A stretch of DNA of 64,000 nt, from assembly GCA_012840015.1 (NCBI GenBank), contig DUMF01000017.1:16376-80375 (forward strand). The letters run 5' to 3'. The notes below the pieces were generated by a model, which worked only from the letters and a program-made list of their open reading frames with translations, was not told the origin of the DNA and ran no database searches. Positions 29,059 to 55,254 of the stretch are shown one piece after another (position 1 is the first letter of the stretch; each line of letters starts with the position of its first letter). The position numbers were made by a program, and so were the translations under genes. The DNA comes from Bacillota bacterium. Its GTDB lineage: Bacteria > Bacillota > Sulfobacillia > DUMF01.

Positions 29059-29133
29059 GCTGGCGTAGCTCAACGGCAGAGCAGCTGATTTGTAATCAGC
29101 AGGTTGTCGGTTCGAGCCCGACCGCCAGCTCCA
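29059..29133 (+). tRNA. tRNA-Thr (anticodon UGU)
   Basis: GCTGGCGTAGCTCAACGGCAGAGCAGCTGATTTGTAATCAGCAGGTTGTCGGTTCGAGCCCGACCGCCAGCTCCA. The 7-bp acceptor stem and 5-bp anticodon stem flank the loop TTTGTAA. The T-arm is GGTTCGAGCCC. Confidence 0.85.
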
Positions 29134-30499: not shown

Positions 30500-30949
30500 T
30501 TATTTCAGCACCAATTGTGCATTCAACGGAGTTGGCTCCATGATGCGAACGCCTTCAATCTGATCGAATCGAAGCAAATCGTCCTTGTCATATGTATAAA
30601 AGCACTGCGCCCCATAAACTATTGCTGTTGCGAGATGGATGGCGTCTGGTGGCTTAAGTTTGTACTCTCTAGCCAGCTTTCGAGCCTTAATTGCGATTCT
30701 ACGATCCAATACTACAACCCGAAGCCAGGAATGCTCAAAAAATGCATCGATTCTCTGCAATTGTTCATCGATCATGCTGTTGCCGCGGCATGCTTCGGCC
30801 AAGGTCAATACTGAAGAGAGAGCTCTGATTTGGCCCGCTTCTGCTTCTCTTAGAACGGCTTGGCAATCTTCTACTCGCCCATTTTCACCTTTGAAATAGG
30901 CTAGGAAGACACTAGTGTCAAGGTAAATCAGCGGTGGTTCACCACTCAT
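30500..30949 (-). CDS. PIN-domain ribonuclease (VapC-like toxin)
   Basis: Conserved acidic PIN residues are present (IYLDTSVF…; TLAEA…; PPDAIHLATA…; YTYDKD). Length 149 aa. Confidence 0.65.
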   Translation of the reverse strand: MSGEPPLIYLDTSVFLAYFKGENGRVEDCQAVLREAEAGQIRALSSVLTLAEACRGNSMIDEQLQRIDAFFEHSWLRVVVLDRRIAIKARKLAREYKLKPPDAIHLATAIVYGAQCFYTYDKDDLLRFDQIEGVRIMEPTPLNAQLVLK

Positions 30950-31730
30950 CTTTCAGCCTCCTAAGGTAATCCTCAAGTGGCAAACCATTTGTGATGTTTG
31001 GGGCGACTCCAATCATTTCTTCGATGGAAGGCAATTTCGAGTCATCAGAAAGCACGTCGATGCTTTCTGCAACTACCTGAGCAAGTCGGCCAGTTGCAGC
31101 GTACCTGATCAGGCCGCTCACGCTGACCCTTTTCTTCAGACCGGCCTTTACCTTTTCAAGTAATTCAGGTTTGAAATAGCAGCAAATACAATGGCCTGTC
31201 AACTCATCATAAACGTTGAATTGGTTCTTTTCATGGACGGTAACCATCTCAAGCCTACCTTCTACCGAACCAAGATCTTCCCAGAAAGCGTGAAGGATCT
31301 GGTCTGCTGTCTTTGCAGTTTGCAGTGTTAGTTGTACGCGTCGACGAGGGCCGCTGACTACCATACGTGTTTTAGTTTTGTAAGCTAATTCTGCCAATGC
31401 CTTGGCGGCCCTGATGGTATCCTCAGGGAGACAAGCATTCAAATTACCATTTTCGAGCGCCGCTAGTCCGTCCTCTGCGATGTAGCAAATACGTTCTCCT
31501 ACGACTGTTTCTGCAATTGGACTGACTGCCAGGTGGACACTACCCTTCCCCAAGTCCTTTACTAGCCAGTCTAGCTTTTGTTGCGGTACCAGATCGCGGA
31601 GTGTATTTAGTAGATGCACAAATCGCCTGAAGGCGTGCGCCAATGTGGTCACCCGAACAGCTTGCTCTTCAGAATCGAGGTGTAAGACAAGACATGCCTC
31701 GGGCACCAGCATCTCCCTCCCTTGCGCCAC
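30939..31730 (-). CDS. Hypothetical 263-aa protein translationally coupled to the downstream PIN gene
   Basis: Its 3' end overlaps the PIN start by 11 nt. I recognise no known antitoxin fold. The C-terminus is …SIEEMIGVAPNITNGLPLEDYLRRLKDEW. Confidence 0.4.
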   Translation of the reverse strand: MAQGREMLVPEACLVLHLDSEEQAVRVTTLAHAFRRFVHLLNTLRDLVPQQKLDWLVKDLGKGSVHLAVSPIAETVVGERICYIAEDGLAALENGNLNACLPEDTIRAAKALAELAYKTKTRMVVSGPRRRVQLTLQTAKTADQILHAFWEDLGSVEGRLEMVTVHEKNQFNVYDELTGHCICCYFKPELLEKVKAGLKKRVSVSGLIRYAATGRLAQVVAESIDVLSDDSKLPSIEEMIGVAPNITNGLPLEDYLRRLKDEW

Positions 31731-39967: not shown

Positions 39968-40162
39968 GTGGGGGACCCGCAAAACAGCAAGACTGACGTT
40001 GTGGAACTTGCTAGAATGTTGACTGAGAGGCCCCAGATTGCGGCAACGCTTCTTGCAGTTGCCAGAGCGATACTGACGGTCGAGTACGGGGAGATAACGG
40101 TAAAGATGCAGGGGGGCAAGCCAGTGTGGGTCGACTCTGTGAAGAGGGAGAGAGTCGGGTGA
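39968..40162 (+). CDS. Hypothetical small protein
   Basis: GTG start after a GGAGG. Length 64 aa. Confidence 0.2.
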   Translation: MGDPQNSKTDVVELARMLTERPQIAATLLAVARAILTVEYGEITVKMQGGKPVWVDSVKRERVG

Positions 40163-40240
40163 TGCGCAAGGGGTAGTTTTTCACCGATCTTACGCTGCGC
40201 AAGTTATAATAGAGATTGTAGACGACGTATTGGGAGTGCC

Positions 40241-41224
40241 ATGGAAGGTGCTCCCGGGAGGTACCGTTTGGTGGACAGGGACAGGTTGTTTCAACGTGCC
40301 TGCAATTACTTCGCTTTGTGGGAATTGACTGGGCGCCGCCCACAGGTAACGGCGAACCTTTGGAGTCGGATTACCTCAATCACAGATGTCAACGAGCCGT
40401 TGCCATTAGAGTTGGGTACTATGATAGACATCCCTGATTGGACTCCTGCTCGTATCCGCAACGTTCAAAAGCAAGTTGAACGTGCAATGAAAGAAGTTCT
40501 ACGGCGCGGTAGTGACCATATTCTGGAGAAAGGTACTCCTCAGTATCCCAGGTTGTTGGGGCAGATAGATGGTGCTCCTGAGTTTCTCTTTGCTCGTGGT
40601 AACCTAGAGTTACTTGATAGACCTGCTCTCGCTGTTGTTGGCACTAGGAATGCAAGCGAAGAGGGATTGCGACGTGCGAGTAAGCTAGCGTGTTTGCTTG
40701 TGAATCATGGGATTGTGGTAGTGTCAGGTTTGGCGCGAGGAATAGATACAGCCGCTCACCGTGGAGCACTGAGCGTAGGCACAGAGACTATCGCTGTAAT
40801 CGGTACCCCACTCGGTATTACTTACCCTCCTGAAAACGCTGACTTGCAAAAGCAGATTGAGAAAGTAGGGCTAGTTGTAACGCAGTTCTATCCCGGGGCG
40901 GGAATCCGTCGACACTATTTCCCTATGCGAAACGCGGTCATGAGCGGCCTTTGCCTTGGAACCGTAATAGTCGAAGCATCGGAGCATAGCGGGGCTTTGA
41001 TACAAGCGCGCCAGTGTCTTAAACAGGGTCGCAAGTTGTTTATTCCCAAGAGTGCGGTCGAGAATCCGGGGTTAAGGTGGCCTAAAGAGTATTTGAAAAA
41101 GGGAGCTTGTGAATTTAGCACTATTGAGGAGCTTATGGGGATATTGAGAAATGAGCATTTGCTTCCGCCCGAAAACAAGCCGGTCTGTGCAGAATCCCTA
41201 AGACGAATCAAGATGGTTTTATAG
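40241..41224 (+). CDS. dprA: DprA/Smf-family DNA-processing protein (phage-encoded)
   Basis: Rossmann-like DprA core …YPRLLGQIDGAPEFLFARGNLELLDRPALAVVGTRNASEEG… and GLARGIDTAAHRGAL. Length 327 aa. Confidence 0.75.
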   Translation: MEGAPGRYRLVDRDRLFQRACNYFALWELTGRRPQVTANLWSRITSITDVNEPLPLELGTMIDIPDWTPARIRNVQKQVERAMKEVLRRGSDHILEKGTPQYPRLLGQIDGAPEFLFARGNLELLDRPALAVVGTRNASEEGLRRASKLACLLVNHGIVVVSGLARGIDTAAHRGALSVGTETIAVIGTPLGITYPPENADLQKQIEKVGLVVTQFYPGAGIRRHYFPMRNAVMSGLCLGTVIVEASEHSGALIQARQCLKQGRKLFIPKSAVENPGLRWPKEYLKKGACEFSTIEELMGILRNEHLLPPENKPVCAESLRRIKMVL

Positions 41225-41228
41225 CCGC

Positions 41229-42485
41229 GTGTTTACAGAAGTCAACGAAATTAAGTGTGTGATAATAAGGCCACCTAACCCTCCTGGGGTAATGACCAGG
41301 GACGAAGGATGGCACAGGCTTGCCCAGCTGTTTGACTGCATTTTCCTAGTTGACCCTGGTGAAGTTGATTTGTGGAGGAAGTACGGACGTTGTGCAATAC
41401 GACAGCATGTAATCCCGTATGTTCAAGGCAACCTCAAATCTATACTATCCTCTGAGGGCTTGCTTCCGTGCGAAACGGTGTATGTGACCTGGGACCCGAG
41501 TGAACTAAACGATGCAGTAAATGCGCGCGTAGGGACTGTGCTGGTCGGAGATGACTCGCTGGTTTGGGACGGGACTCGGCCGAGAGCATGGCCTGATCTG
41601 CTCGTGAGCGAGTTAGACGGTGTTATTAAGTGCTTAGATCTAGTGCGCCAAGGACGCTTGACAGGGTATGCAGGGGAAGTAGGCGGGACTACATGGAAGC
41701 GGTTCAAACGGGGAAGCGGATGGCTGGTAGCTGGTCCAGACTGCGGCAAGAGTTGTCAGATGCAGATACTCGCTTTGGGTCGGTATTTCCCAACGGGTGA
41801 TGCAAGAGCAGCAAAACACCAATATACCCAAAGATTACTGGAAATGAAGAACGGGTGCGAACGGGTTCTAGCTGAAGTTTTGGGTCGCGTACTTGAGAAA
41901 ATAAAAGAGAACATGCCGTTTCAACTTGTTACAGTAGTGCCTCCAAAGCCTAGTAAACACTACCCTTCCGGCCTTCAGGAAACGGTCGAACGAGCCTGCA
42001 ACGAAGCAGGTCTAGGGGGTCTATTCTGCGACACGGCTTTGATTTGTAAAGAAGACTATCCTTCGCAGAAATGTACATCTTGGAGTGCCCGAGAAGAAAA
42101 CGTAAAGGGCAAGTATGAAGCAAGACTTAAAGGTTCGGAGCGGCACGTAGTCGTTATCGATGACATCTATACCAGCGGGTCGACGATTCGGGAGTGCTGT
42201 AAGCAGCTTTTGCAAGCTGGTGCCGGAGAGGTAACGGGAATTGTATTTGGTGTTGACCAGTGCGTGATTAAGTCTACCGAGGAGAAAAGACTACCTTGTC
42301 GACGACCAGGTTGCAACGGAACATACAGATTCAGATGTAACAGGGCTGACCATACTGCGTTTTGGGGTTGTTCCAAATTCCAGAACGGTTGCAAGAGTAC
42401 ACTTGACTGGGAGGATGGACTGCAGGAGCTCAACAGGATGAATACTGTGCTTGGTAGTGCATACTTTGATGACATACCTTTTTGA
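41229..42485 (+). CDS. ComF-like phosphoribosyltransferase-domain protein with C-terminal topoisomerase-type zinc ribbon
   Basis: PRTase PRPP-loop HVVVIDDIYTSGSTIRE preceded by a ComF-like segment. The C-terminal CRRPGCNGT…CN…GCSKFQNGCKST is a zf-C4_Topoisom-like ribbon. It starts 5 nt after the dprA stop. Confidence 0.55.
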   Translation: MFTEVNEIKCVIIRPPNPPGVMTRDEGWHRLAQLFDCIFLVDPGEVDLWRKYGRCAIRQHVIPYVQGNLKSILSSEGLLPCETVYVTWDPSELNDAVNARVGTVLVGDDSLVWDGTRPRAWPDLLVSELDGVIKCLDLVRQGRLTGYAGEVGGTTWKRFKRGSGWLVAGPDCGKSCQMQILALGRYFPTGDARAAKHQYTQRLLEMKNGCERVLAEVLGRVLEKIKENMPFQLVTVVPPKPSKHYPSGLQETVERACNEAGLGGLFCDTALICKEDYPSQKCTSWSAREENVKGKYEARLKGSERHVVVIDDIYTSGSTIRECCKQLLQAGAGEVTGIVFGVDQCVIKSTEEKRLPCRRPGCNGTYRFRCNRADHTAFWGCSKFQNGCKSTLDWEDGLQELNRMNTVLGSAYFDDIPF

Positions 42486-42770
42486 ATGTTTAATACCTTA
42501 AGCTCGGCTACGCAAAAACGCAAGGCCGATCCCGAAAAAAAAGGGGTCGGCCTTGCGCTCTTGAGAGGGGTGGTCAGGCTGATCTCCGTTGGGGCGTACA
42601 TCGCATACTACCAGCCGTATATTTGGCGGCTGCTGCAGCGCAGATTTGGGCTCCAGGGCTGCAATAAAGATAGAGAGCTGGTCCTGACGGCCGAAGAGGC
42701 GAAGCGGCTGATGCAGCACGACGCCCACAGGCGGGTAAGAGGGGCGATACGGCAGGTGAGGTGGGAATGA
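42486..42770 (+). CDS. Hypothetical small protein (94 aa), third gene of the dprA-comF-like unit
   Basis: ATG immediately after the previous stop. The product is a basic protein. Confidence 0.3.
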   Translation: MFNTLSSATQKRKADPEKKGVGLALLRGVVRLISVGAYIAYYQPYIWRLLQRRFGLQGCNKDRELVLTAEEAKRLMQHDAHRRVRGAIRQVRWE

Positions 42771-43363: not shown

Positions 43364-43597
43364 TTGTTTCCCAAACCGGTACGCATTATAAGCAGGAGCA
43401 CAGTAGAGAAGGCCCGCAAGCCGTACTGTGACCTCTGCGGCGCTGTGGGTCCCGTGCATGTACACCACATTCGCTCCCGTGGAGCCGGAGGGGATGACGT
43501 GCCGGAAAACCTGATTGCGCTGTGCCCGAGGTGCCATGAGCTGGTCCACCGAGGCAAGATTCCGAGGGAGTGGCTGCTTGATGCTAGACGATCTTGA
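43364..43597 (+). CDS. HNH endonuclease (terminase-associated)
   Basis: CDLCG…HVHHIRSRGAGGDDVPENLIALCPRCHELVH is the HNH motif. Located adjacent to terS/terL. Confidence 0.75.
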   Translation: MFPKPVRIISRSTVEKARKPYCDLCGAVGPVHVHHIRSRGAGGDDVPENLIALCPRCHELVHRGKIPREWLLDARRS

Positions 43598-44268: not shown

Positions 44269-45547
44269 CCCCTTTAAGTGCCTTCCTGGCCAGCGGCGGT
44301 TCATGGAGTCCACAGCTCCGGAGCTTCTGTATTCAGGGGCATGGGGTGCTGGCAAAAGCCGGGTGCTGTGCGAAAAGGCGCTGTACCTTGCCCTGAAGTA
44401 CCCGGGCAACTTCGTCGGCATCTGCCGGAAGACGTTCAACGCGCTAAAGCAGACTACAATGCGGACGTTTTTCCGGGAAGCGTGCCCACCAGACCATATC
44501 AAGTCGTGGAACAAGACTGACCATCTCCTCACGCTTAAGAACGGCTCACAGGTGTACTTTTTTGGTCTCGATGACCCGCTGAAGATACAGTCGTTGAACC
44601 TGGGTGCGTGTGGGGTCGACGAGGTCGTGGAGCTAACCGAAGAGGACTGGACTGTGCTCGGAGGCAGGATACGTTTGTCGTCGGTTCCGTTCAGGCAGCT
44701 GTTCGCGGCGACCAACCCGGCGAGTCCAAGCCACTGGCTTTATAAGAGGTTCTACATTGACCGCTCCACGCTTCCGGACGGTCGGCCACTGACCGAAGTG
44801 GTTGAGAGCAACTCGTTGGAGAACCCATACCTGCCACCAGACTATGTCGCAAGGATTCAGACGCTGACTGGGCGATACAGGGAACGGTTTGTCCTGGGGC
44901 GGTGGGTTGGCTTCGAGGGGCTGGTATACGACTGCTTTGATCCCCTGATCCACGTTGTCGATAAGATGCCCGAAGGATGGCAGAAGTGGCCTAAAGTGAG
45001 GAGCATCGATTTCGGGTATGCGAACCCGTTCGTGTGCCAGTGGTGGGCGATCTCACCGGACGACGAGTGGTATCTTTATCGCGAGATCTATTTCTGTCGA
45101 AGACTCGTGTCCGAACATGCAGCTCAAATCAAGGCGTTAAGTGCTGGCGAGACGTATCTGGCAACCTACGCGGACCACGATGCCGAAGACAGGGCCACGC
45201 TTGAAGCGTGCGGCATTCCTACGGTTCCGGCTGTGAAGGACGTTTCGCCTGGTATCCAGGAGGTGTACAGCCGGTTGCAGCCGGATGAAAGGGGCAAACC
45301 GAGGCTGTACTTCTTGAGGGGTGCGCTGGTGGAGCGCGATCCGGCTCTCGTTGAGGCCAAGAAGCCGACCTGCACCATCGATGAGATACAAGGCTATCAG
45401 TACCCGAAGCCGAGGGGCGAACGGAACCCCCAGGAAGAGCCGATCAAACTGAACGACCACGGGATGGACGCAATGCGCTACGCGATTTACTCGTTTGCGA
45501 GTTCGCGAAGAGCCAAAAGGACCCTCGACAAGGTGGTAGTCGTATGA
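44234..45547 (+). CDS. terL: Terminase large subunit (PBSX/terminase_6-like)
   Basis: Walker A SGAWGAGKS and a nuclease-domain acidic residue pattern. Length 437 aa. Confidence 0.85.
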   Translation: MTSTTAPIRKTSPFKCLPGQRRFMESTAPELLYSGAWGAGKSRVLCEKALYLALKYPGNFVGICRKTFNALKQTTMRTFFREACPPDHIKSWNKTDHLLTLKNGSQVYFFGLDDPLKIQSLNLGACGVDEVVELTEEDWTVLGGRIRLSSVPFRQLFAATNPASPSHWLYKRFYIDRSTLPDGRPLTEVVESNSLENPYLPPDYVARIQTLTGRYRERFVLGRWVGFEGLVYDCFDPLIHVVDKMPEGWQKWPKVRSIDFGYANPFVCQWWAISPDDEWYLYREIYFCRRLVSEHAAQIKALSAGETYLATYADHDAEDRATLEACGIPTVPAVKDVSPGIQEVYSRLQPDERGKPRLYFLRGALVERDPALVEAKKPTCTIDEIQGYQYPKPRGERNPQEEPIKLNDHGMDAMRYAIYSFASSRRAKRTLDKVVVV

Positions 45548-47001
45548 CCGACCAGAAACGAGTGTTGACCAAAGCGATAACGATACAGGCAGACCAGCGG
45601 ACATCGGCCGGGGGGTCAAAGCAACTCCCGGCGGATCCGTTTTCGAGGCTTTATTCGGAGTACGGTCTGGTGAGGCCTCCGTATCGCCTCGAGCAGTTGC
45701 TCGAACTCAAGGAGTCGAACCCGATCCACTGTGCCTGCATAGAGCAGAAGAGTTCGGATATTGCTGGCCTGGGTTGGCACTGGGTGCCGAGACAGGGTAT
45801 CGATAAGCCCAACGAAAAGCAGCGCGACGCTCTCGAGGAGTTCCTGGCTGGCTGCAACCCCGAGATGACGTTCCGGGAGATTTTGCAAGCAGTCTGGGAC
45901 GATGTAGAAACGCTCGGGTGGGGCATTGTCGAAGTGGTCCGCAATGCTAAAGGCCTGCCGGCTGAACTGTACCACGTGCCGGGCCACACGGTCCGGGCCC
46001 ACCGTGACGGCGTCCGGCTCTGCCAGATACGGGAGAACAAGATGCGGTGGTTCAAGCGCTTCGGTGCGGAGGGTGAGTACGATCTTGAAACCGGTGAACC
46101 GAGAAACGGGCTGCCCGAGGAAAGGCAGGCCGGCGAGCTCATAGTCATCCGCAAGCCCGGTTCCCGGTCCAGCTACTACGGGATACCGACGTACATCAGT
46201 GCGCTGGGCGCCATCGTGGGCAGCCTGGCAGCCAGGGATTTCAACATTACCTGGTTCCGCGAGAAGACGGTCCCGGATATGGCGCTGATTATCGAAGGGG
46301 CCGATGTATCCGAGAAACTGGCGAACGAGCTCCGGACCTTTTTCAACATTGAGGCACGAGGGCAGCATCATAAACTGCTAATTTTGCCCATCCCTTCGGA
46401 TGCCGGTGCAGAAGTCAGAGCCAGGTTTGAGAAGCTGACTTCCGAGCTCAAAGATGCTTCGTTCCGGCTCTACCGGCACGACAACGCGGTTGAGATCCTG
46501 GTGGCTCACCGCGTTCCGCCTTACAGAATCGGTTGGGCAATCGTCGGTTCGCTGGGCGGTTCTACGGCGAAAGAGATGACTGAGATCTACAAGCGCTCAG
46601 TCATCCAGCCTGGTCAGGAGATTCTCGAGCACAGGCTTAACAATCAACTATTCAAGGCCTTCGAGCCCGGCCTTGGTGAGCTGCAGTGGCGCTGGAAGCT
46701 GGACGAGATAGACCTCTCCGACCAGATGCAGGACCTCGAGTACTCCATCAAGGGCGTGCAGTACGGCATATTTACGCCCAACGAGGCGCGTCAGCATCTA
46801 GGCAAGCAGCCTTATCCGGGCGGAGATGTGTACTACATGCCGCAAGCGCTAATACCGGCCGGCCAGGCTGAAGTGTCCAAGGCCGACGAAGATCCGCGGG
46901 ATAAAGAGTGGGACGACTGGGTTCGGGTACATCATCGCTATGAAAAAGACCTGCGCGACAAGGTGGTCGATTTTTTCGCTCCCAGGCGGAGCGCGTGCTG
47001 A
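45544..47001 (+). CDS. Portal protein
   Basis: 485 aa in the position after terL. Typical portal length with ATGA-type coupling. Confidence 0.75.
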   Translation: MTDQKRVLTKAITIQADQRTSAGGSKQLPADPFSRLYSEYGLVRPPYRLEQLLELKESNPIHCACIEQKSSDIAGLGWHWVPRQGIDKPNEKQRDALEEFLAGCNPEMTFREILQAVWDDVETLGWGIVEVVRNAKGLPAELYHVPGHTVRAHRDGVRLCQIRENKMRWFKRFGAEGEYDLETGEPRNGLPEERQAGELIVIRKPGSRSSYYGIPTYISALGAIVGSLAARDFNITWFREKTVPDMALIIEGADVSEKLANELRTFFNIEARGQHHKLLILPIPSDAGAEVRARFEKLTSELKDASFRLYRHDNAVEILVAHRVPPYRIGWAIVGSLGGSTAKEMTEIYKRSVIQPGQEILEHRLNNQLFKAFEPGLGELQWRWKLDEIDLSDQMQDLEYSIKGVQYGIFTPNEARQHLGKQPYPGGDVYYMPQALIPAGQAEVSKADEDPRDKEWDDWVRVHHRYEKDLRDKVVDFFAPRRSAC

Positions 47002-48017
47002 GAGCGCTTCCGCCGGCAGAGAAGATAGAAAAGGCCTGGTTCGACGGGCTGATTGACCCCGTCGAGGAGCAGAAGAAATTCCTCGAAGCCATACTGCCGG
47101 AACTGCAGAAGATCTTTGCCAAGTTCGCCGAAAAGGCCGCGAAGCAGCATCGAGTCAGTTTCGATCCGTCGGAACCCGCGGCTCTGGAGTGGATCAACGA
47201 GCATGCTTTCGAATTAGTCGAACAAGTCACGGACACCACGGTGGAGCAGCTTCGTGCGACGCTGGAGGAAGGATGGAAGGCGGGTGAGGGCGTAGAGGGC
47301 CTGGCAGAGAGAATCAGGCAGGTCTTCGACCAGGCTACGCGTTACAGGTCCTTTGTGATAGCCCGGACCGAGACTACCGCAGCTGCCAACATGGCACAGA
47401 TAGCCGTGATGGAGCGGGCAGGGGTGCAGTACAAGCAGTGGCTTACGGGCAGGGACGAACGCGTTTGTCCTCTCTGCGGTAGCCTGGACGGCAAAGTAGT
47501 GCGGATAGACGAGGAGTTTGCCCCGGGGATATTCAGCCCACCGGCACATCCGAACTGCAGGTGCACGGTTCTGAGTGCGAGCACAGTTCATAAGCACTTG
47601 CCAGGTCGACATGACCAAAAAAGCCACGGTAGACGAGGTCACGGGCGGCCCACAGTGATTGCGTCTATCGAAAGCGGGGATCTGCGACAGCTTGGATTGT
47701 CTGCAACAAGCACTAAAGTAGTTTTGCGCTCACAAATAAGAGCAAAGATTCTAAGAGATCACCCAGATGATGCTGGATACTTGGATAGAATCAGCGAGGT
47801 TATCGAGGCTTGGGAATATCAAGGGAAGTCTCCAAAACATCCAAGGAGACTCGAGCGATACAAGCAGTTAGACGGTATCTGGTTTACGGCAGTGGTCCAA
47901 TTAGCCGGAGAAACATCTGATTACGTTGACAACTTCGTAGTGACATTCCACAGGCTCGACGAACGAAAGGTACGTAGCCGATACAACAAAGGGAGGATAG
48001 TACCAAGAAGCCATTGA
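46995..48017 (+). CDS. Minor head protein (MuF / SPP1 gp7-like) with ~140-aa C-terminal extension
   Basis: MuF-like core ending …CPLCGSLDGKVV…HPNCRCTV, then an additional basic C-terminal region. Confidence 0.65.
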   Translation: MLRALPPAEKIEKAWFDGLIDPVEEQKKFLEAILPELQKIFAKFAEKAAKQHRVSFDPSEPAALEWINEHAFELVEQVTDTTVEQLRATLEEGWKAGEGVEGLAERIRQVFDQATRYRSFVIARTETTAAANMAQIAVMERAGVQYKQWLTGRDERVCPLCGSLDGKVVRIDEEFAPGIFSPPAHPNCRCTVLSASTVHKHLPGRHDQKSHGRRGHGRPTVIASIESGDLRQLGLSATSTKVVLRSQIRAKILRDHPDDAGYLDRISEVIEAWEYQGKSPKHPRRLERYKQLDGIWFTAVVQLAGETSDYVDNFVVTFHRLDERKVRSRYNKGRIVPRSH

Positions 48018-48339
48018 AGTGATCATGTCGACGTGGTACGATTAAATTGCCCTTGAGGTAGGTAAATGGGGACCTACGCCCTCGCGGAGATGCCGGTCTT
48101 TCCCGTCCGGCCAAGGGTGTTTTTTGTTGCTGTTCGCGAGTACAATAATCTTAGTCGCCAGAGGTGGAAAATCTCCAGCCATACCCCTGATTCACATCAG
48201 GGCAAAAGAGATGCCGGGACGGGAGGTCCGGCCTGGCGACAGCAAGCACCTTGAGGTGGACAACGGCTTCCACACGCCCTCTGGGCCAAAAGGGATGCGG
48301 GACACGCCGGACCCGCCAAGGTGTAGCCTAATATAGACG

Positions 48340-48372
48340 CATAAGGAGCCTTCCTGCAGGGCTCCTTTTCAT
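48340..48372 (+). terminator. Intrinsic terminator inside the morphogenesis module
   Basis: GGAGCCttcctgcaGGGCTCC stem-loop followed by TTTTC. Confidence 0.5.
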
Positions 48373-48396
48373 TTGCCCCGAAAGCGTGGTGATAGC

Positions 48397-49011
48397 ATGC
48401 CCAGAGGCGGAGGCTGGGACGAGACTTCTACGAGCTACAGGTATCGGGTTCGTGACCCCTATGAGTTCCAAGAAGGGAGCTTCAGGATCATATCCTTGGG
48501 CGACAGCGGTGTCAAGGCCGTGGTTGGAAAGCTCAAGGGAGAGGACTCAATGACCATCCAGTCGCTCATCTTCCCGAAGGACAAGTTTACTGAAGAAGAG
48601 GCTCGCCAGTGGTTGAAGGATCGCCCCGACACCGTAGGAAAGTTTTGCAAAGCGATCAGCTTCCTCAAAACGGATGAAGAAAAGCGCTACACCCTCGGGA
48701 TCGTCTACGAACCTGACACGGTGGATTCCCAGGGCGACTACGCGAGGGCCGAAGACATTGAGAAAGCTGCTTGGGATTTCATGAGGAAAACCCTGCGGCT
48801 CGGGTACATGCACAAGGAATGGAGCGATGACATCGGCGACATTGTAGAGTCCTATATCGCCCCAGTTGATATGAGAATCGGGGACGACATTATCAAGAAG
48901 GGCACCTGGCTTATCGGCGTGGTGTGGAGCCCGGAGTACTGGGAGAAAGTGAAGAAAGGCGAGATAACGGGGTTCTCGATGGGAGGGAAGGCGAGAAGAA
49001 TACCTGAGTAG
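48397..49011 (+). CDS. Phage protein in XkdF-like position (putative prohead-associated protein/protease)
   Basis: About 204 aa between the minor head protein and the scaffold. Family call is by position only. Confidence 0.35.
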   Translation: MPRGGGWDETSTSYRYRVRDPYEFQEGSFRIISLGDSGVKAVVGKLKGEDSMTIQSLIFPKDKFTEEEARQWLKDRPDTVGKFCKAISFLKTDEEKRYTLGIVYEPDTVDSQGDYARAEDIEKAAWDFMRKTLRLGYMHKEWSDDIGDIVESYIAPVDMRIGDDIIKKGTWLIGVVWSPEYWEKVKKGEITGFSMGGKARRIPE

Positions 49012-49085
49012 GCAGACAGCAGTGCAGAGAATGCGGCAGCCAGGCAAATTGCCCGGCTGCTTTTGTTTTGGGCGGAGGTGGTGAC

Positions 49086-50186
49086 ATGCCGAACAGGCTA
49101 ACGGATATCCAAGTCGAGGAGATAAGCGGGGTAGACAAGGCAGCAAATAGGAGACGGTTCTTGCTCATGAAGCGCGAAGGAGGTGGCGAGGGCGCTATGG
49201 ATAAGGCCGACAAGCCGATGAAGACGGAGGACGGGAAGCAGTATCCCGCAGAGGCCTATCTTTATGTGCCCGATCCAGAAAAACCAAGCACGTGGAAGCT
49301 CCGCATCTGGGAGGATCCGGAGAAAAAGGTAACCGCGGCTCAGGTAGGCAGGGCCATAGCAGCGCTAAGTCCGGGTGGGTTCCGAGGTAACCAGGTGGAT
49401 ATCCCCGAGGATGAGATTCCGAAGATCAAGGCCAAGCTCCGCAGGCTCTGGCGGGAGGTGAATCCGGACAAGGATCCGGACGAGATGCCGGAGACCATTA
49501 AGAAGCAAGGGTTCATCGCTAAGATTGCAGAGACCCTCAAGAAGGCCATCTACGGTAAGGATTTCGAGGCCAACCTAATCCAGTCAAAGATAGACGAGCA
49601 GTGGTGGAGGGCGAATGAAGCCCTGAGAACCGCAATTTCGGAGATTATCCAAGATGAGGGAATGACGCCGCAGGAGAAGATCAGTCAAATAGCCGTGACC
49701 TTGGGGCAGTTTCAGGAGTACATTCTAGGTTTGGCACAGGCACAGTTAAACGTGACCGATCAAGAGACCCAAAGGAGCGATATCCAGAAGATCGGGGCCA
49801 AGATAGCCCGATCACGGCTGGAAAAGATCAAGGCAGCGTACGCGGTGCTGGCCGAGATTTTGGCCGAAGTTGAAGGAGATGAGGAGGGCGATGAAATGAC
49901 CAAGGAAGAGATCACAAGGATGGTGGAAGACGCTTTGAAACCTGTGGTTGAGAGGTTAGAGAAACTCGAGAAGCCGGAGGACGGCGACAAAAATGATCCT
50001 GCGGCCGAGCAGGTCAAGAAGGAAGATGTGCAGGCAATGGTGACCGAGGCGGTCAACAAGGCTCTGGAGCCCGTCCTGCAACGGCTCGAGGTCGTCGAGA
50101 AGGCCAAAGGTATAAAGAAGTCGGTCGACGGCCAGGACGACCCCGACAAGGACGTCAAAAAGAGCATTTGGGCAGGTATTCTGTGA
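49086..50186 (+). CDS. Scaffolding protein
   Basis: Highly charged, helical, coiled-coil-rich protein directly upstream of the capsid gene. A GGAGGTGGTGAC RBS precedes ATG 49086. Confidence 0.55.
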   Translation: MPNRLTDIQVEEISGVDKAANRRRFLLMKREGGGEGAMDKADKPMKTEDGKQYPAEAYLYVPDPEKPSTWKLRIWEDPEKKVTAAQVGRAIAALSPGGFRGNQVDIPEDEIPKIKAKLRRLWREVNPDKDPDEMPETIKKQGFIAKIAETLKKAIYGKDFEANLIQSKIDEQWWRANEALRTAISEIIQDEGMTPQEKISQIAVTLGQFQEYILGLAQAQLNVTDQETQRSDIQKIGAKIARSRLEKIKAAYAVLAEILAEVEGDEEGDEMTKEEITRMVEDALKPVVERLEKLEKPEDGDKNDPAAEQVKKEDVQAMVTEAVNKALEPVLQRLEVVEKAKGIKKSVDGQDDPDKDVKKSIWAGIL

Positions 50187-50211
50187 TCTCGAGTGAGGAG
50201 GAATGACGCAA

Positions 50212-51150
50212 ATGCCAATGAGCAACAAGGAATTGCTGGAGAAAATAGACACCGGATCTCTGGCCGGGGGTGGACTGCTCAACCCTGAGCAGGCCAAGGA
50301 GTTCTTTGAGATGACGTTTGAGGCGACGGAGTTCTCAAAACTTCATCGCAAGGAGCAGAAAACTGCCACCACCGGCGAGCTTGACAAGATCGCGATCGGC
50401 GGCAGGTTGCTGAGGAAGAAGACCGAGGGCGTCGACGACAATTATAGGGCAGGCATCAGCACGTCAAAGATTGAATACTCGACCGTACCCGTGCGTTTGC
50501 CCTGGGACATTTCCGAGGATACGCTGCGGAAGAATATCGAGAGAGAGGCTTTTGAGGACCGCGTCATCAGGATGATGACCACCCAGACCGGTATCGACGC
50601 TGAGGACTTGCACTTTAACGGAGATACCTCCAGCAGCGACCCATTCCTGAGCATCAACGACGGCTGGATCAAGCAGATCAAGACCGGCACAGGTTCACAT
50701 GTGGTAGACTGTTCCGGCGACTCTGCCTTCGGCAAGGCTACACTGTTCAAGATCTCCCGGAACATGCCCAACAAGTACAAAAGCTCAAAGCTCAAGTGGA
50801 TCATGAGCCCGACTAGGCGTGAACTCTGGATCGAGTATCTCACCAGCCGACCCACCGCCGCGGGGGATGCGGCACTGCTCGGGGCCGGGGATCAGGTGAA
50901 CCAGCCTTTGGGATACGGGATCGTGACTGTTCCCTCGCTTCCGGACGACATCATAATCCTTACCAACCCGGAAAACTTTATCGTCGTCTGGACGTACGAC
51001 ATCCGTATACGCAAAACCACCGAGGGCCGTGAGGCCATCATGCAGGATAAGCGTTTCTACGTCATACACTTCGACGACGACCCGGTGATACAGGAACTCG
51101 ACGCGGTGGTGCTGGCGTACGGTATTCCCGAGACCCTGGCTACCTCGTAA
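50212..51150 (+). CDS. Major capsid protein
   Basis: About 312 aa following the scaffold. GAGGAGGA RBS. Confidence 0.65.
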   Translation: MPMSNKELLEKIDTGSLAGGGLLNPEQAKEFFEMTFEATEFSKLHRKEQKTATTGELDKIAIGGRLLRKKTEGVDDNYRAGISTSKIEYSTVPVRLPWDISEDTLRKNIEREAFEDRVIRMMTTQTGIDAEDLHFNGDTSSSDPFLSINDGWIKQIKTGTGSHVVDCSGDSAFGKATLFKISRNMPNKYKSSKLKWIMSPTRRELWIEYLTSRPTAAGDAALLGAGDQVNQPLGYGIVTVPSLPDDIIILTNPENFIVVWTYDIRIRKTTEGREAIMQDKRFYVIHFDDDPVIQELDAVVLAYGIPETLATS

Positions 51151-51163
51151 AGGGTGAGACTCA

Positions 51164-51472
51164 GTGAAGAGACTTAGACTTCTAAGATTGGCCTCGTTCA
51201 GCGGCTACGGAATAGACGTGACGCAGAACGAGCCTGTGATCGAAGTGGAAGACGATTTAGCGGAGAGGCTTTTGGCGACGGGGTACTTTGAAGATCTGAC
51301 CCCAAAGGGCACTACGAAAGTGCCTGCACCAGAGCCCCAGAGTGAGAATGAAAAAGTTCCAGAAGCACCACAGGGCGAAGAAGTGCAGGCAACGGATGAG
51401 ATTGAAAGCGTGGCGGAGCCTTCTGAGGATATGCAGGAGGCTCCTAAGTCTAAAGGGGGTAGGAAGAAATGA
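51164..51472 (+). CDS. Hypothetical acidic phage head-module protein
   Basis: ORF-track entry only. Low-complexity acidic C-terminus. Confidence 0.3.
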   Translation: MKRLRLLRLASFSGYGIDVTQNEPVIEVEDDLAERLLATGYFEDLTPKGTTKVPAPEPQSENEKVPEAPQGEEVQATDEIESVAEPSEDMQEAPKSKGGRKK

Positions 51473-51849
51473 TCACGGTACCATATGATCTGGGCGCTGT
51501 GGGCGTAGAGCAGGTAGCCAGCGCCGACATAACCAAGGCAGATACTACGGTTGAAATTATATCTTTGCCGGCGAACTGCCTCATAACCAGGGTAATCGCC
51601 GAGGTCACTGAGGCGTTCAATGCGGCGACTACGAACGTCCTGACTGTTGGAACGAATGTTGACGTGAATGACCTCTTGGGTGAGGGCGATGTTAACGAGA
51701 GCGCCTCCGGCTTCTACGAGTCGGCCACTGTGAAAGCTAAGAAGTTGACTGCAGCGGCTACTGTAAAAGCAAAGTACGCCTATACCGGCACGGCGCCGAC
51801 TACGGGCAAGGCGACGATATACGTGTTCTTCGTAAGACTGCAGCCGTAA
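51469..51849 (+). CDS. Hypothetical phage structural protein
   Basis: ATGA overlap with the upstream gene. Confidence 0.35.
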   Translation: MITVPYDLGAVGVEQVASADITKADTTVEIISLPANCLITRVIAEVTEAFNAATTNVLTVGTNVDVNDLLGEGDVNESASGFYESATVKAKKLTAAATVKAKYAYTGTAPTTGKATIYVFFVRLQP

Positions 51850-51866
51850 TGGAGAGTAGGTGACGG

Positions 51867-52424
51867 GTGATGGATTACATCACCGTTGCGCAGCTGCGCT
51901 CTAGGCTCAAAACTGATCTGGACGACGGGGCGCTTTCCGATATCATCGCGGAGGAGAGCGCCCTTATTACTGTCACCCTGAGCGCTGAGCCAGCCGATCC
52001 GATGGTTGAGGAATTGCCCGGCGGAGGAACCGCGATCTGGCTCACCTACCGCCCTTCGGTAGTCCAGGAGGTCCGGGACGTCGTGAGCGATACCGTGATC
52101 GACCCGGCAACGTACCTGGTGCGGGGGCGCGCTTTGGTCATGCCGCAAATGGTCATATCGGATCTGGACTTTGAAATCCGATCTGCAACGTGGCCGGAAC
52201 GGGTGAGAGTCACGTACTCCATCGCCGGGCTCGCGGATATCCTCGCCATCTTGAGAGGAGTATGCCTCGACCTGTGCAGGTTGGCGATCACCGACATGGG
52301 GGCGGAGCAGTCGGAGCGCCTCGGAGACTACCAGCACGACTCCAAGGATGTGCAGGCCGAGCGCAAGAAGGTGCTCGCCCGGCTCAACAGGATAAAGGGT
52401 CTACGGCCCGTGATGGCCGGATGA
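51867..52424 (+). CDS. Head-tail connector (gp6-like)
   Basis: The N-terminal ITVAQLRSRLKTDLDDGALSDIIAE pattern and position suggest a head-tail connector. Confidence 0.45.
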   Translation: MMDYITVAQLRSRLKTDLDDGALSDIIAEESALITVTLSAEPADPMVEELPGGGTAIWLTYRPSVVQEVRDVVSDTVIDPATYLVRGRALVMPQMVISDLDFEIRSATWPERVRVTYSIAGLADILAILRGVCLDLCRLAITDMGAEQSERLGDYQHDSKDVQAERKKVLARLNRIKGLRPVMAG

Positions 52425-52744
52425 GCCTGCGGCAACTGCTGAACCAAACGGTCTCAATCCAAAGAAAGGAACGCTCCCCAGACGGAATGGGCGGGTGGAT
52501 TTCAGATTGGGTCACCGTGATCACTACAGTGGCCCGAATCAGCCCTGTCAGCGCAAAAGAACGAATCCAGTACGAGCAGTTGCAGTATCCTGTGACGCAC
52601 AAGGTCTATATGCTGGGCAGTGCGAACGTCAAGCCGGGCGATCAGATTGTGTTTGGGGCCCGCAGGTTCTCGGTCAAGGGCGTAACCAACCCGTCTGAGA
52701 TGGGGCATCACCTCGAGGTTCTGTGCGAGGAGACAGGGATCTAG
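52421..52744 (+). CDS. Head closure / head-tail adaptor (SPP1 gp16-like)
   Basis: ATG 52421 overlaps the upstream stop (ATGA). Length about 107 aa. Confidence 0.5.
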   Translation: MSLRQLLNQTVSIQRKERSPDGMGGWISDWVTVITTVARISPVSAKERIQYEQLQYPVTHKVYMLGSANVKPGDQIVFGARRFSVKGVTNPSEMGHHLEVLCEETGI

Positions 52745-52941
52745 TCATCCTCGTCATCGATTAGTTCGATGTCCATCCAGAGCCCCCTGAGCTTGTCTCG
52801 CTTGTTGATGGTAGCCCTGAGAACGGGTTCGCCCGGGGATACATCGTGAATGCTGGCGATCTCCGTTACGTTCCCATCGACCACCGTCAGGACATCTTTG
52901 CGAACGGGTTTCTTTTTGGGCACGTCCATCACCTCGCTCAT
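52741..52941 (-). CDS. Reverse-strand small ORF (66 aa) in the gap between the head-closure and gp10-like genes
   Basis: ATG start with a weak RBS. It fills a 225-nt gap in the late operon. Acidic C-terminus. Confidence 0.3.
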   Translation of the reverse strand: MSEVMDVPKKKPVRKDVLTVVDGNVTEIASIHDVSPGEPVLRATINKRDKLRGLWMDIELIDDEDD

Positions 52942-52969
52942 TGAATTCGCCGAGAGGAAGCGATTTCCT

Positions 52970-53527
52970 ATGCCGAAACCGCCGAAGGCCGAAATTACGT
53001 TCAAGAGCAACCTAAAGGCCGTAGAAGCCGTGCTGGATCGTGCTGCCTGGGAGCGCATGGAGCGGGCGTGCCAGCATCTTGTCAATGAGACCAAGAAGGC
53101 TATGACTGGGCCGAAGAGCGGGCGTTGGTACATCAAGCCAGGTATTAAGACCATTGCGGAGCGAGTGGCCACTCTTAGGACGGCCAAGATTGCTCGGAAG
53201 GAAAAGAAGCTGGGGAGGCCTCTAACTGAACAGGAGAAGACCCAGATTACTGCCAAGCTCACCCCCGCGCAACTACAAGCCCGCAAATACAGAGCATCTG
53301 CTCCTGGTGAGACTCCGGCCCTGCGTACTGGTCGGCTATTTAATAGTATCGATTACTATGTGATAGGCACAGGGCTGAACCTGCGCGGCATCGTGGGATC
53401 ACCCCTTGAATATGCACCGTACCTCGAATTTGGCACCTCAAAGATGGAACGCAGGCCTTTCCTGCGACCGACCTATGAACGCGAACGCGAGAACGTGAAA
53501 GACATCCTCGGAGGCAAGTGGGTATGA
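52970..53527 (+). CDS. HK97 gp10-family phage protein
   Basis: …GETPALRTGRL…YAPYLEFGT…RPFL motifs. ATG 52970 has a GAGAGGAAG RBS. Confidence 0.6.
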   Translation: MPKPPKAEITFKSNLKAVEAVLDRAAWERMERACQHLVNETKKAMTGPKSGRWYIKPGIKTIAERVATLRTAKIARKEKKLGRPLTEQEKTQITAKLTPAQLQARKYRASAPGETPALRTGRLFNSIDYYVIGTGLNLRGIVGSPLEYAPYLEFGTSKMERRPFLRPTYERERENVKDILGGKWV

Positions 53528-53940
53528 TCCCGGTACTGCAGTATCTCTACAACACACTGACAGCAGATCATGACCTTGTGAGCAGGCTCGCTACTTACAG
53601 AAGCGGGCCTGCAGTGTTCTTCGGGAAAGCGCCTTCAGATGCACAAATGCCGTATGTTGTGCTGCATGCTGATAGTGCTGTGCCGGAGGAAGGGCATGCG
53701 ACGGAGCGGCTGCTGCTGGCTGTTGACGTGTACAACAGGAGCGAGAGCGCGCTCGGCGCACTGCAGATTGCGGGGCGGATTGAGACTGTACTGGATAGGC
53801 AAAAGCCCGGCTTGACCGGCATCACGGGTTTGGCGATTTTCCGCGATTTTCAGGCTTTGGTGGACGACGAGGATCCAACAGTCCAGCACGTCCACCTTGA
53901 GTTCATCGTGCGTTACGGCAGAGATGATTTGTTTGCATGA
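53518..53940 (+). CDS. Tail completion/terminator protein (DUF3168-like)
   Basis: 140 aa between gp10 and the major tail protein. Confidence 0.45.
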   Translation: MGMIPVLQYLYNTLTADHDLVSRLATYRSGPAVFFGKAPSDAQMPYVVLHADSAVPEEGHATERLLLAVDVYNRSESALGALQIAGRIETVLDRQKPGLTGITGLAIFRDFQALVDDEDPTVQHVHLEFIVRYGRDDLFA

Positions 53941-53949
53941 GGAGGATGA

Positions 53950-54543
53950 TTGCAGATGCCAGCCATTAGAACCGGTATTTCGGCGACCACGCCTCAGAAC
54001 TACTTGATTGGGCCAGGGGCAGTCTACAAGGACTTTACGGATCTCGCAACCCTGGGAACGACCGCTAAGTTACTTGGCGCCACCGCGGGCGGCAATCAAG
54101 TAACCGTTACTCCAGAATGGTTCGACCCGAGGCCTGATGGCGCTCCCGGTCCCATCAAAGGCATGAGGCGGCTCATCGGGGTCACAGTGACGGCCAAGGT
54201 CAACCTGCTTGAGATGACGAAGGAAAACCTCATGCTTGCGCTGGGCAAGGCGACGTCTGAGCCTTATCCGGCCACGACCCCGACTCATGACAAGATCAGA
54301 CCTTCTCTCGGGACGCTCGCATCGACTGACTACTTCAACATTGCTATCGTTGGCGACCTTGGCGGCGACACTGACCCGGTCGTGTTTGTCTTAGAGAATG
54401 TCTGCGTCACTGACGCCGTTGAAATCAATATGGGTACCGGCAAGGAGGACATAGTGCTGGCCGTCACCTTTACGGCACACTATGACCCGGCCAATCTAGA
54501 ACAAGTGCCAGCTTACATCCTAAGACCGCAAACTACGCCGTAA
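53950..54543 (+). CDS. Major tail protein
   Basis: 197 aa, immediately upstream of the chaperone G/GT pair. Confidence 0.6.
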   Translation: MQMPAIRTGISATTPQNYLIGPGAVYKDFTDLATLGTTAKLLGATAGGNQVTVTPEWFDPRPDGAPGPIKGMRRLIGVTVTAKVNLLEMTKENLMLALGKATSEPYPATTPTHDKIRPSLGTLASTDYFNIAIVGDLGGDTDPVVFVLENVCVTDAVEINMGTGKEDIVLAVTFTAHYDPANLEQVPAYILRPQTTP

Positions 54544-54556
54544 TGGGGGCTAAACC

Positions 54557-54961
54557 ATGAGCAGGGATAAGAACGATGAAGCTATCATCCTGGAAACTGG
54601 TCAGGAAGTGGAAATCGCAGACCGCAAGTACACGATGAGGCGGCTTACGACGCGGGATGTGTTTGCGTTCTCGAAACTGGTAACCAAGGCTTTGAAAAGC
54701 ACTGGCAACCAGGAGGTTGCCAACCCAGACGCTCTGGGTTTCGTTCTGATGGCAGGTATGGCTGAGAACGACCACGAGGTAGCAGCGTTCTACGGGTCGT
54801 TAATAGGGTTATCTGCTGACGAGTTCTTGGCTCTTCCAGCTGAAGCTTTCAGCGACTTCTTCGACGCTCTGTCTAGGAGCTACGATTTGCAGGCTTTTTT
54901 CGAAGCAGTAACCAAAGCCGTGAGGGCCCTGGGCTCTCTCTGGCAGACGCCCTCGACATAG
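54557..54961 (+). CDS. Tail assembly chaperone (G)
   Basis: 134 aa, followed by an overlapping -1 frame ORF (T). Confidence 0.55.
   Translation: MSRDKNDEAIILETGQEVEIADRKYTMRRLTTRDVFAFSKLVTKALKSTGNQEVANPDALGFVLMAGMAENDHEVAAFYGSLIGLSADEFLALPAEAFSDFFDALSRSYDLQAFFEAVTKAVRALGSLWQTPST
54895..54901 (+). promoter_or_regulatory. Programmed -1 ribosomal frameshift slippery heptamer T_TTT_TTC (chaperone G→GT)
   Basis: XXXYYYZ heptamer in the G frame (…GCT TTT TTC…). The -1 frame is open from here through 55254. Confidence 0.45.
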
Positions 54962-55254
54962 TGGAAGCGAGGTACGGGTGGACGGACGAAGAGGTGCTGT
55001 CTCTTCCGTTCGCCCGCTTCCTGCAGGTGGTGGAACAGGCATCGAAGGCGCAGAGAGAAGAAATGAGGCGCCTGGCGTTTCTCGGCTGGCAGGTCCAGGC
55101 GCCGCTGAGGGAGCGTCAGATAAGCTTCGCCGAGTACCTGGACGCCCTGGGGCTGGGAAACGAACGGCCCGCTCCGGTTAGGGTTACCAAAGAGCAGGCA
55201 GAGAAGAGGGCGGATGAGATTCTGGCGATGTTCGAAGCGACAAATCAGCCATAA
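54961..55254 (+). CDS. Tail assembly chaperone frameshift extension (T part of G-T)
   Basis: Lies in the -1 frame relative to G and is contiguous with the slippery site. Confidence 0.45.
   Translation: MEARYGWTDEEVLSLPFARFLQVVEQASKAQREEMRRLAFLGWQVQAPLRERQISFAEYLDALGLGNERPAPVRVTKEQAEKRADEILAMFEATNQP

Follow-up and report, generated by a model that had tools for sequence, protein, structure and literature searches.

The gene pair and its protein products

We analyzed a 64,000-nucleotide stretch of contig DUMF01000017.1 (hereafter, the window), which derives from the metagenome-assembled genome of an uncultured Bacillota bacterium from a biogas fermenter. A prophage in this window carries a gene for a DprA-like protein followed by a gene for a 418-aa protein that was deposited as a "hypothetical protein." An earlier note on this DNA described the second protein as a ComF-type phosphoribosyltransferase (PRTase) with a zinc ribbon, and proposed that the pair handles single-stranded DNA (ssDNA) during recombination or hijacks host transformation. 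These functions are not the best supported ones, because both proteins match the ShosTA system. The defining pair of ShosTA, and also of PsyrTA, is a DprA-like protein and a PRTase, and ShosTA is a characterized toxin–antitoxin/abortive-infection defense found in prophage hotspots (PMC9122126, PMC11961720, PMC12961424). Prophage-borne DprA and PRTase pairs protect against T7 and lambda (PMC9122126). We propose that the window pair is probably a divergent anti-phage toxin–antitoxin cassette of the ShosTA type, carried as a moron by a temperate phage at tRNA-Thr. This proposal draws on a match to the PADLOC profile for ShosA, a conserved arginine triad, the ShosT fold, an alignment with ShosT from Pf phage, conserved pairing of the two genes, and their behavior as a cassette. 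The genes and features of the locus are as follows.

40205-40210, + strand: perfect TATAAT hexamer, candidate -10 element of an autonomous promoter, 30 nt 5' of the dprA-like ATG (read from the sequence)
40232-40236, + strand: GGGAG ribosome-binding site upstream of the dprA-like ATG
40241-41224, + strand: dprA-like gene, 327 aa (open reading frame (ORF) list)
41229-42485, + strand: 418-aa ShosT-like gene, GTG start (ORF list)
41229-41663, + strand: predicted HAD-fold N-domain of the 418-aa protein, residues ~1-145, degenerate
41760-42263, + strand: ComF-like PRTase domain, residues ~178-345
42297-42392, + strand: C4 zinc ribbon of the topoisomerase-I type, C357-x4-C362 ... FWG-C381-x6-C388
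42453-42482, + strand (last 10 codons): acidic C-terminal tail ...YFDDIPF, resembling the C-terminal tip of the ssDNA-binding protein SSB
42486-42770, + strand: 94-aa ORF (ORF list; also called by independent gene callers)
42519-42557, + strand: 15-bp GC-rich hairpin, 34 nt past the stop codon of the 418-aa gene

The coordinates that the earlier note gave for the three ORFs are exact, and the motifs it quoted are present: AVVGTRNASEEG and GLARGIDTAAHRGAL in the DprA-like protein, and HVVVIDDIYTSGSTIRE in the 418-aa protein. The spacer between the dprA-like gene and the 418-aa gene on the same strand measures 4 nt (41225-41228) rather than the 5 nt reported. Because the 418-aa gene begins 4 nt past the dprA-like stop codon, the two genes are probably translationally coupled. 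The GTG start of the 418-aa gene is backed by an N-terminus, MFxEVN, that is kept in homologues.

We built an AlphaFold2 model of the 418-aa protein on a 130-sequence family alignment. The model has a predicted local distance difference test score (pLDDT) of 93 and a predicted template modeling score (pTM) of 0.92. A Foldseek search of the PDB with this model returned the ShosT structures 8zvd, 8zvb, and 8zvc as the top three matches (E 3-5e-8, probability 1.0, ~400 aligned columns). Next came H. pylori ComF, followed by HAD hydrolases that include a B. thetaiotaomicron pyrophosphatase, the comparator that Pu et al. used for the ShosT N-domain (PMC11961720). The BFVD library of viral structures yielded no meaningful full-length match. 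The earlier note could not place the N-domain in any family and suggested profile searches and structure prediction. Since the Foldseek matches are ShosT and HAD hydrolases, the model assigns this domain to the HAD fold, as in ShosT. When profile and sequence were compared, E. coli ShosT aligned over just the HAD N-domain region (E 4.9e-5), and the Pfam HAD models do not match the window N-domain.

The HAD-like domain is degenerate. Motif I reads VIIRPPNPPG where hhhhDxDx(T/V) is expected, which places R14 and P16 at the Asp positions. We therefore rejected an active HAD phosphatase, as motif I has no DxD. Both motif I aspartates are kept in ~45% of the window family. Two acidic residues, D123 (41595-41597, 'PD') and E150 (41676-41678, 'GY.GE'), are 100% invariant across the 130 sequences and sit after the HAD core and before the PRTase domain, despite the degenerate HAD catalytic motifs.

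The PRTase domain retains its catalytic features. Its phosphoribosyl pyrophosphate (PRPP) loop, VVVIDDIYTSGST, contains D311/D312, which are invariant in the 130 sequences and align with ShosT residues 331/332. The family-invariant PRTase residues are G184-R185-Y186, H197, K207, P238, R288 (97%), and N291, and K281 (87%) and T315/G317/T319 of the PRPP loop are also kept. The best match of the PRTase segment is comF (TIGR00201, 2.6e-11, residues 210-336), and models for salvage PRTases match the protein at the PRPP loop only. The domain is thus ComF-like, as the earlier note had recognized, and is not an ordinary salvage enzyme.

Two named identities were considered for the whole protein and rejected. 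It is not a bona fide ComFC: it scores below the curated cutoffs (43.8 bits against 233.55 for comF TIGR00201, and 36.2 against 304 for GntX), has an N-terminal HAD fold in the model, and bears its sole C4 motif at the C-terminus in a Top1-type ribbon. True ComF relatives in our homologue searches carry PF18912. Nor is it PsyrT, as it has no RecQ helicase domain and the PADLOC PsyrT model (7.6e-10) is matched only at its PRTase end (model positions 558-680 of 689). The architecture is distinct from that of ComFC, as had been claimed, but it is not unprecedented, since HAD plus PRTase is the architecture of ShosT.

The C-terminal ribbon is well conserved. The cysteines C357, C362, C381, and C388 are kept at 90-100% in the 130-sequence alignment. 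Pfam reports no C4 ribbon in the window protein, and PF01396 (Zn_ribbon_Top1) is found in homologues at ~2e-5 to 5e-5 and in the Pf-phage relative at 2e-12. The family profile matches topoisomerase I ribbons in the PDB (4rul/9gda) at 3e-4. Cysteine conservation, PF01396 in homologues, and these PDB matches together bear out the Top1-type ribbon described previously. The window ribbon aligns with the first ribbon of Pf-phage ShosT.

Beyond the ribbon, the protein ends in a tail reminiscent of the SSB C-terminal tip (SSB-Ct), whose sequence DDDIPF docks SSB on partner proteins (PMC5872125). The window protein ends in FDDIPF, and the consensus for the family places D-[IVL]-[P/E/D]-F at the very C-terminus, preceded by an acidic run. 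The tail differs from SSB-Ct in its location on a PRTase/zinc-ribbon protein rather than on an OB-fold SSB. Phe is the last residue in 115 of 151 family representatives (background 5%) and 107 of the 151 have an acidic tail that closes with an aromatic residue, counts that come from cluster representatives of shared ancestry and so show conservation, not independent origin. A logo anchored at the C-terminus has an acidic run, D/E at -4 (68%), I/V/L at -3 (65%), P/E/D at -2, and F at -1. The tail is modeled less confidently (pLDDT 61-83) than the remainder of the chain, which is what one would expect of a flexible tip. The acidic-Phe tail is absent from E. coli ShosT, Pf-phage ShosT, and one sub-clade of the family (L009-L016, on IMG/VR contigs). 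Members of this sub-clade have N-termini that read LLRN... or MFRC..., at least two CxxC pairs near the C-terminus, and a DprA-like gene upstream. As far as we found, the literature does not describe an SSB-tip-like tail on a ShosT-like toxin.

Residues ~1-92 of the DprA-like protein form an N-terminal, SAM-like helical region, and residues 93-289 (40517-41107) form a DprA Rossmann domain. The latter matches PF02481 at 4.6e-62, so the DprA core named in the earlier note is solid. The protein does not qualify as a canonical DprA (Smf) mediator, as it falls below the dprA cutoffs (182.2 bits against 191.15 for TIGR00732, and 166 against 495 for NF008007) and is encoded by a prophage gene coupled to a PRTase gene. 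PADLOC profiles match at 3.2e-72 for ShosA (PDLC03961), a profile that a canonical DprA would probably match too, and at 1.2e-30 for PsyrA. In an alignment, the ssDNA-binding residues R139/R234/R261 of ShosA correspond to R136/R230/R257. Several partner DprA-like proteins in the family carry an extra N-terminal HTH_17 domain (excisionase/MerR-like), namely gp32 of phage phiOH2 (L003:4584-5816) and the proteins at L001:643-1779 and L008:4742-5998. The window protein does not have this domain, which on its partners would fit autoregulating antitoxins.

The DprA-like protein also shows a weak match to the SLOG cluster (PF18306, 0.0024). LOG enzymes are phosphoribohydrolases and would chemically reverse a PRTase reaction. 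The pair could on this basis be centered on a nucleotide, with the PRTase making a toxic or signaling phosphoribosylated product and a SLOG-class DprA-like protein binding or hydrolyzing it. Such a scheme would accommodate the reports that the acceptor substrate of ShosT is still unsettled and that ShosT does not bind ShosA directly (PMC11961720, PMC12961424). We consider it highly unlikely. The ssDNA-binding arginines are kept in the window protein, and mutating the arginines or the RecA interface of ShosA abolishes its antitoxin activity (PMC12961424). Furthermore, we identified no LOG-type catalytic motif in the window DprA-like protein, and the zinc ribbon and SSB-like tail of its partner point to DNA.

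Pairing, position, and prophage setting

The 418-aa protein belongs to a large family. An exhaustive profile search, which set the family size, found ~200 cluster representatives at E <= 1e-30, most of them 400-440 aa long and covering the whole profile; word-indexed homologue searches recovered just 3-6 relatives. The family is mostly Gram-positive and phage-borne, and its members are annotated as 'hypothetical' or 'amidophosphoribosyltransferase'. In two close homologues on short metagenomic contigs (L001 and L002), a DprA-like gene abuts upstream. The same was seen in all 11 viral contigs with a full-length or nearly full-length homologue, where the DprA-like gene lies directly upstream on the same strand. 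In ShosT loci of the HAD type, for example that of Pf phage, the DprA-like gene is downstream, and weak PRTase-only matches have none. Reference genomes contributed eight true members, all from Bacillota or Actinomycetota, and five of these have DprA upstream in the stretch examined. This genome census is small, as the eight came from 61 matches to a hand-made motif pattern, and a scan of the genome collection with a 4-sequence alignment found no members. A survey of dprA–PRTase adjacency had been suggested as a check in the earlier note, which allowed that dprA might be a host gene picked up through imprecise excision. The survey indicates that the pair is kept across unrelated phages and is not a host-gene pick-up.

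The position of the pair varies from phage to phage. In the window it follows RusA and precedes the late regulator, and in phiOH2 it falls between ArpU and terS. In L008 it adjoins holin and amidase genes, and in L006 it adjoins HTH and PLD-like genes. The GC content of the window pair is 0.47-0.51, compared with 0.58-0.63 in the flanks. The TATAAT hexamer upstream has a weak -35 partner (TTCACC, 19-nt spacing), and a consensus promoter scanner did not report the site owing to this poor -35. Downstream, the region that includes the hairpin (42480-42580, 101 nt) folds as RNA at -45.9 kcal/mol (z -5.45), and 0 of 200 shuffles were as stable. The hairpin has no U-tract on the + strand; an A-tract lies upstream and a T-tract is present on the minus strand only. 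A terminator scanner did not call it. The hairpin may be a 3' transcript boundary or may insulate the module from the late-regulator operon. Because of its variable position, low GC content, upstream TATAAT, and downstream hairpin, the pair fits an accessory cassette that was gained by horizontal transfer and is expressed on its own. The earlier description of tightly coupled genes in the accessory slot of a temperate phage was upheld on testing.

The earlier note listed the 94-aa ORF along with the pair. Its ATG directly follows the TGA stop of the 418-aa gene, as described, and its own stop overlaps the ATG (42767) of a sigma-r4/ArpU-like regulator (ATGA). Its sole family match is weak (phrog_3928, residues 66-91, 1.8e-5). 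We rejected it as part of the module, since the homologous pairs in L001, L002, and phiOH2 have no such ORF downstream. If real, the ORF belongs with the late regulator, given this lack of conservation and the ATGA overlap. The hairpin falls in codons 12-24 of the ORF, which makes the annotated start doubtful.

The following features mark the surroundings of the pair in the prophage.

29059-29133: tRNA-Thr(TGT), adjoining the left end of the prophage
30500-30949, - strand: PIN-domain gene (PF01850, 3.2e-19), beside the integrase
30939-31730, - strand: 263-aa ORF with no family, upstream of the PIN-domain gene
39968-40162, + strand: 64-aa ORF separating RusA from the dprA-like gene (independent gene callers agree)
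43364-43597, + strand: HNH endonuclease (PF01844, 6.3e-11)

The left flank of the prophage holds the tRNA-Thr gene, the integrase, the PIN-domain gene, and CI/Cro-like regulators. The middle holds a Gp3-like protein, a G39P-like loader, and RusA (PF05866, 1.3e-22). Downstream of the pair are the sigma-r4/ArpU-like regulator, the HNH gene, the terminase, and the portal. The setting between rusA and the late regulator is as the earlier note described it, except that one extra ORF, of 64 aa, follows RusA. No family could be assigned to this ORF, and the GC content begins dropping there. The HNH gene sits just 5' of the small and large terminase genes, and an HNH gene directly before the terminase is typical of HNH-assisted cos packaging. 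Because a scan of positions 45000-64000 found no tRNA/attL repeat of at least 12 nt downstream, the right end of the prophage probably lies beyond position 64000.

The RusA neighborhood bears on the possibility that the pair is a recombination or ssDNA-handling module, in which the phage DprA would serve as the loader of RecA, or of a recombinase encoded by the phage, on phage ssDNA and the 418-aa partner would act with RusA. The pair is directly downstream of RusA in the early region, and the DprA-like protein resembles canonical DprA more than it resembles E. coli ShosA. ComFC contacts DprA as well as ssDNA during competence (PMC9005727), and the zinc ribbon and SSB-like tail hint that the 418-aa protein is recruited to ssDNA/SSB complexes. 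We nevertheless judge this role unlikely. Elsewhere, the pair is found beside terminase, lysis, and defense-like genes rather than beside RusA, and the window pair has the composition and boundaries of an acquired cassette. The predicted fold of the 418-aa protein is HAD plus PRTase, as in ShosT, and not the zinc finger plus PRTase of ComFC. Finally, every DprA-like and PRTase pair that has been tested is a toxin–antitoxin or defense system (PMC9122126, PMC11961720, PMC12961424).

The start of the PIN-domain gene overlaps the end of the 263-aa ORF, and these two genes may form a second toxin–antitoxin-like module in the prophage. This PIN-domain toxin-like gene by the integrase makes addiction modules plausible in the prophage, and the pair downstream of RusA might likewise serve mainly to stabilize the prophage through post-segregational or post-excision killing. 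The molecular evidence for such a function is the same as for a ShosTA-type defense, and the antitoxin-first gene order is typical of addiction pairs. However, the homologous systems are anti-phage by demonstration (PMC9122126, PMC11961720), and many unrelated phages carry family members at positions resembling hotspots. Stabilization as the principal role therefore seems to us quite unlikely, although defense and stabilization are not mutually exclusive.

A predicted ShosTA-type defense cassette

We infer the toxicity, neutralization, trigger, and defense phenotype of the window pair by homology. The toxicity of ShosT needs PRPP binding, including D331/D332 and basic residues of the flexible loop, and ShosA neutralizes ShosT through binding of ssDNA and RecA (PMC11961720, PMC12961424). 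By analogy, the 418-aa protein would be the toxin, with a ComF-like PRTase that binds PRPP through the intact DD-containing loop and harms nucleotide metabolism or DNA replication. The HAD-fold domain fused to this PRTase has lost its nucleophile. The Top1-type ribbon and the acidic SSB-like tail probably guide the toxin to ssDNA or to SSB-associated replication and repair machinery. The DprA-like protein would be the antitoxin and probably the sensor, binding ssDNA and, as in ShosA, RecA. It is predicted to offset the toxin in uninfected lysogens by means of this ssDNA/RecA binding rather than by sequestering the toxin. In ShosTA, infection is reported to free the toxin when synthesis of a labile antitoxin is stopped or when the antitoxin is diverted to phage ssDNA (PMC11961720, PMC12961424, bioRxiv 10.1101/2022.08.27.505566). 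A superinfecting phage that stops host expression or floods the cell with ssDNA intermediates would similarly deplete or divert the window antitoxin. The freed toxin would then kill or arrest the cell, which would protect both the resident prophage and the lysogens as a population.

Several observations weigh against this interpretation. The link between the 418-aa protein and ShosT comes from structure comparison, because sequence searches reach the PRPP loop only. phmmer found no match between the protein and the solved ShosT structures in the PDB, and the family profile matches 8zvb at the PRPP loop alone. The PADLOC ShosT model matches at 8.5e-6 over 39 residues (303-341, the PRPP loop), and the same model gives 1.2e-41 for the short ShosT of phage Mana and 1e-17 for Pf-phage ShosT. 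The HAD domain is without DxD. The DprA-like protein almost attains the TIGR00732 equivalog cutoff and is nearer to S. pneumoniae DprA (3uqz, 1.6e-38) than to E. coli ShosA (9vzo, 4.1e-23) in PDB sequence matches. The ShosA dimer-interface residues L181/F182 are replaced by S178/V179, and dimerization via a canonical DprA-like interface is possible. The adjacent RusA is compatible with a recombination role, and the parts given to the promoter and hairpin rest on consensus- and energy-level inference. The demonstrated toxicity, neutralization, and defense phenotypes come from E. coli systems.

The C-terminal tail and ribbon might connect the toxin to the trigger. B. subtilis DprA interacts with SsbA (PMC5587729), and escape from ShosTA has been traced to mutations in phage SSB and primase-helicase genes (PMC12961424). 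These two reports make it plausible, as a hypothesis, that the tail and ribbon tie the toxin either to its own antitoxin or to complexes of SSB and ssDNA. A bolder proposal, which we regard as possible but doubtful, is that the tail is a functional SSB-Ct mimic that, with the ribbon, plugs the toxin into the SSB network, and that displacement by phage SSB or ssDNA is the trigger. In one variant, the DprA-like antitoxin would hold the toxin via the tail, a direct contact with no counterpart in E. coli ShosTA. In another, the tail would bring the toxin to SSB-partner proteins at replication forks. If the tail does mimic SSB-Ct, this would supply a mechanism for the escape mutants in phage SSB and primase-helicase genes.

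An SSB-Ct-like tail could also compete with SSB for its partners, and DprA-like proteins could sequester RecA. The pair might accordingly act in anti-defense or host manipulation, by disturbing host transformation or an immune system that senses ssDNA or SSB. We find this scarcely credible. There is no precedent for it among the characterized homologues, and an intact PRPP-binding catalytic site would be needless for a decoy. The cassette features fit a module expressed in the lysogen over an early anti-defense gene.

The trigger of ShosTA and the acceptor substrate of its toxin are unresolved, and the escape mutants implicate phage SSB and primase-helicase without a mechanism. The ribbon and the SSB-tip-like tail are two extra toxin modules that point at ssDNA/SSB complexes, and the tail is the one feature that could inform how ShosTA senses infection. 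A functional tail would give a testable connection from the toxin to the replication-fork proteins that genetics has implicated. A tail without function would leave the window locus as one more ShosTA-like prophage cassette.

Comparison with known systems

We compared the window pair to characterized and deposited systems. The crystallized E. coli ShosTA (ShosT 8zvb/8zvc/8zvd; ShosA 8zva/9vzo) corresponds to gp42/gp41 of Peduovirus P2_4C9 (7e-294 to 8zvb, 5e-221 to 9vzo). Like the window pair, it is prophage-borne, in its case at a P2-like prophage hotspot, and consists of abutting, co-oriented genes in the order DprA-like, then PRTase. E. coli ShosT also has a DxD-less HAD-fold N-domain (IFSIADV in E. 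coli) followed by a PRTase with a catalytic DD, and E. coli ShosA has a SAM-like region, a DprA Rossmann domain, and the ssDNA-binding arginine triad. The two toxins share only ~12-14% identity, and profile hidden Markov models see the PRPP loop only. The relative orientation of their domains is unlike (template modeling score 0.29), and the window PRTase domain is nearer to ComF than to APRT. E. coli ShosT lacks a zinc ribbon, and its C-terminus reads ...DNWDWPQ without an acidic-Phe tail. The dimer-interface residues of E. coli ShosA are not kept in the window DprA-like protein.

ShosTA from Pf phage of P. aeruginosa (PfAC02a ORF6/ORF5; 'HAD-IA family hydrolase' P0005) is also phage-borne, and it adjoins other defense genes such as Kiwa. 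Its toxin combines HAD, PRTase, and a C-terminal Top1 ribbon, and is 23% identical (E 7e-15) to the window protein across residues 178-386, a stretch that takes in the ribbon. It differs in having a canonical HAD domain (FDLDNTL; Pfam HAD_2, 4e-23), two ribbons instead of the one in the window protein, and no SSB-like tail (it ends in ...NYSENV). The gene order is reversed, with the toxin before the antitoxin.

The closest deposited phage relative of the window pair is gp32/gp31 of Geobacillus (Thermus) phage phiOH2, which is annotated only generically and is uncharacterized. The DprA protein gp32 is 48.6% identical to the window DprA-like protein, and gp31, an 'amidophosphoribosyltransferase', is 29% identical to the 418-aa protein across residues 66-407, which span the ribbon. 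The phiOH2 genes have the same order, encode an acidic tail ending in F (...QQEDWLF), and lie in the late-regulator/terminase region. They differ in the extra N-terminal HTH_17 of gp32 and in their placement after, not before, the ArpU-type regulator.

PsyrTA/RqlHI resembles the window pair in having a DprA-like antitoxin and a ComF-like PRTase module in its toxin. The PsyrT model matches the window PRTase better (7.6e-10) than the ShosT model does (8.5e-6), but the RecQ-like helicase domain of the PsyrTA/RqlHI toxin is not in the window protein. The competence protein ComFC has its own 4-Cys finger at the N-terminus and no HAD domain, whereas the window ribbon is C-terminal and of the Top1 type. 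The window pair also differs from ComFC and DprA in scoring below the curated cutoffs and in residing in a prophage rather than in a competence operon.

These comparisons lead us to regard the window pair as a variant of a known, ShosTA-type system and not as a new kind of system. It represents a large, uncharacterized branch of DprA and PRTase systems that includes the ~200 clusters described above, and present defense-system profiles recognize this branch only by half. The locus documents an evolutionary bridge between the ComFC and DprA proteins of competence and the ShosTA and PsyrTA systems of defense.

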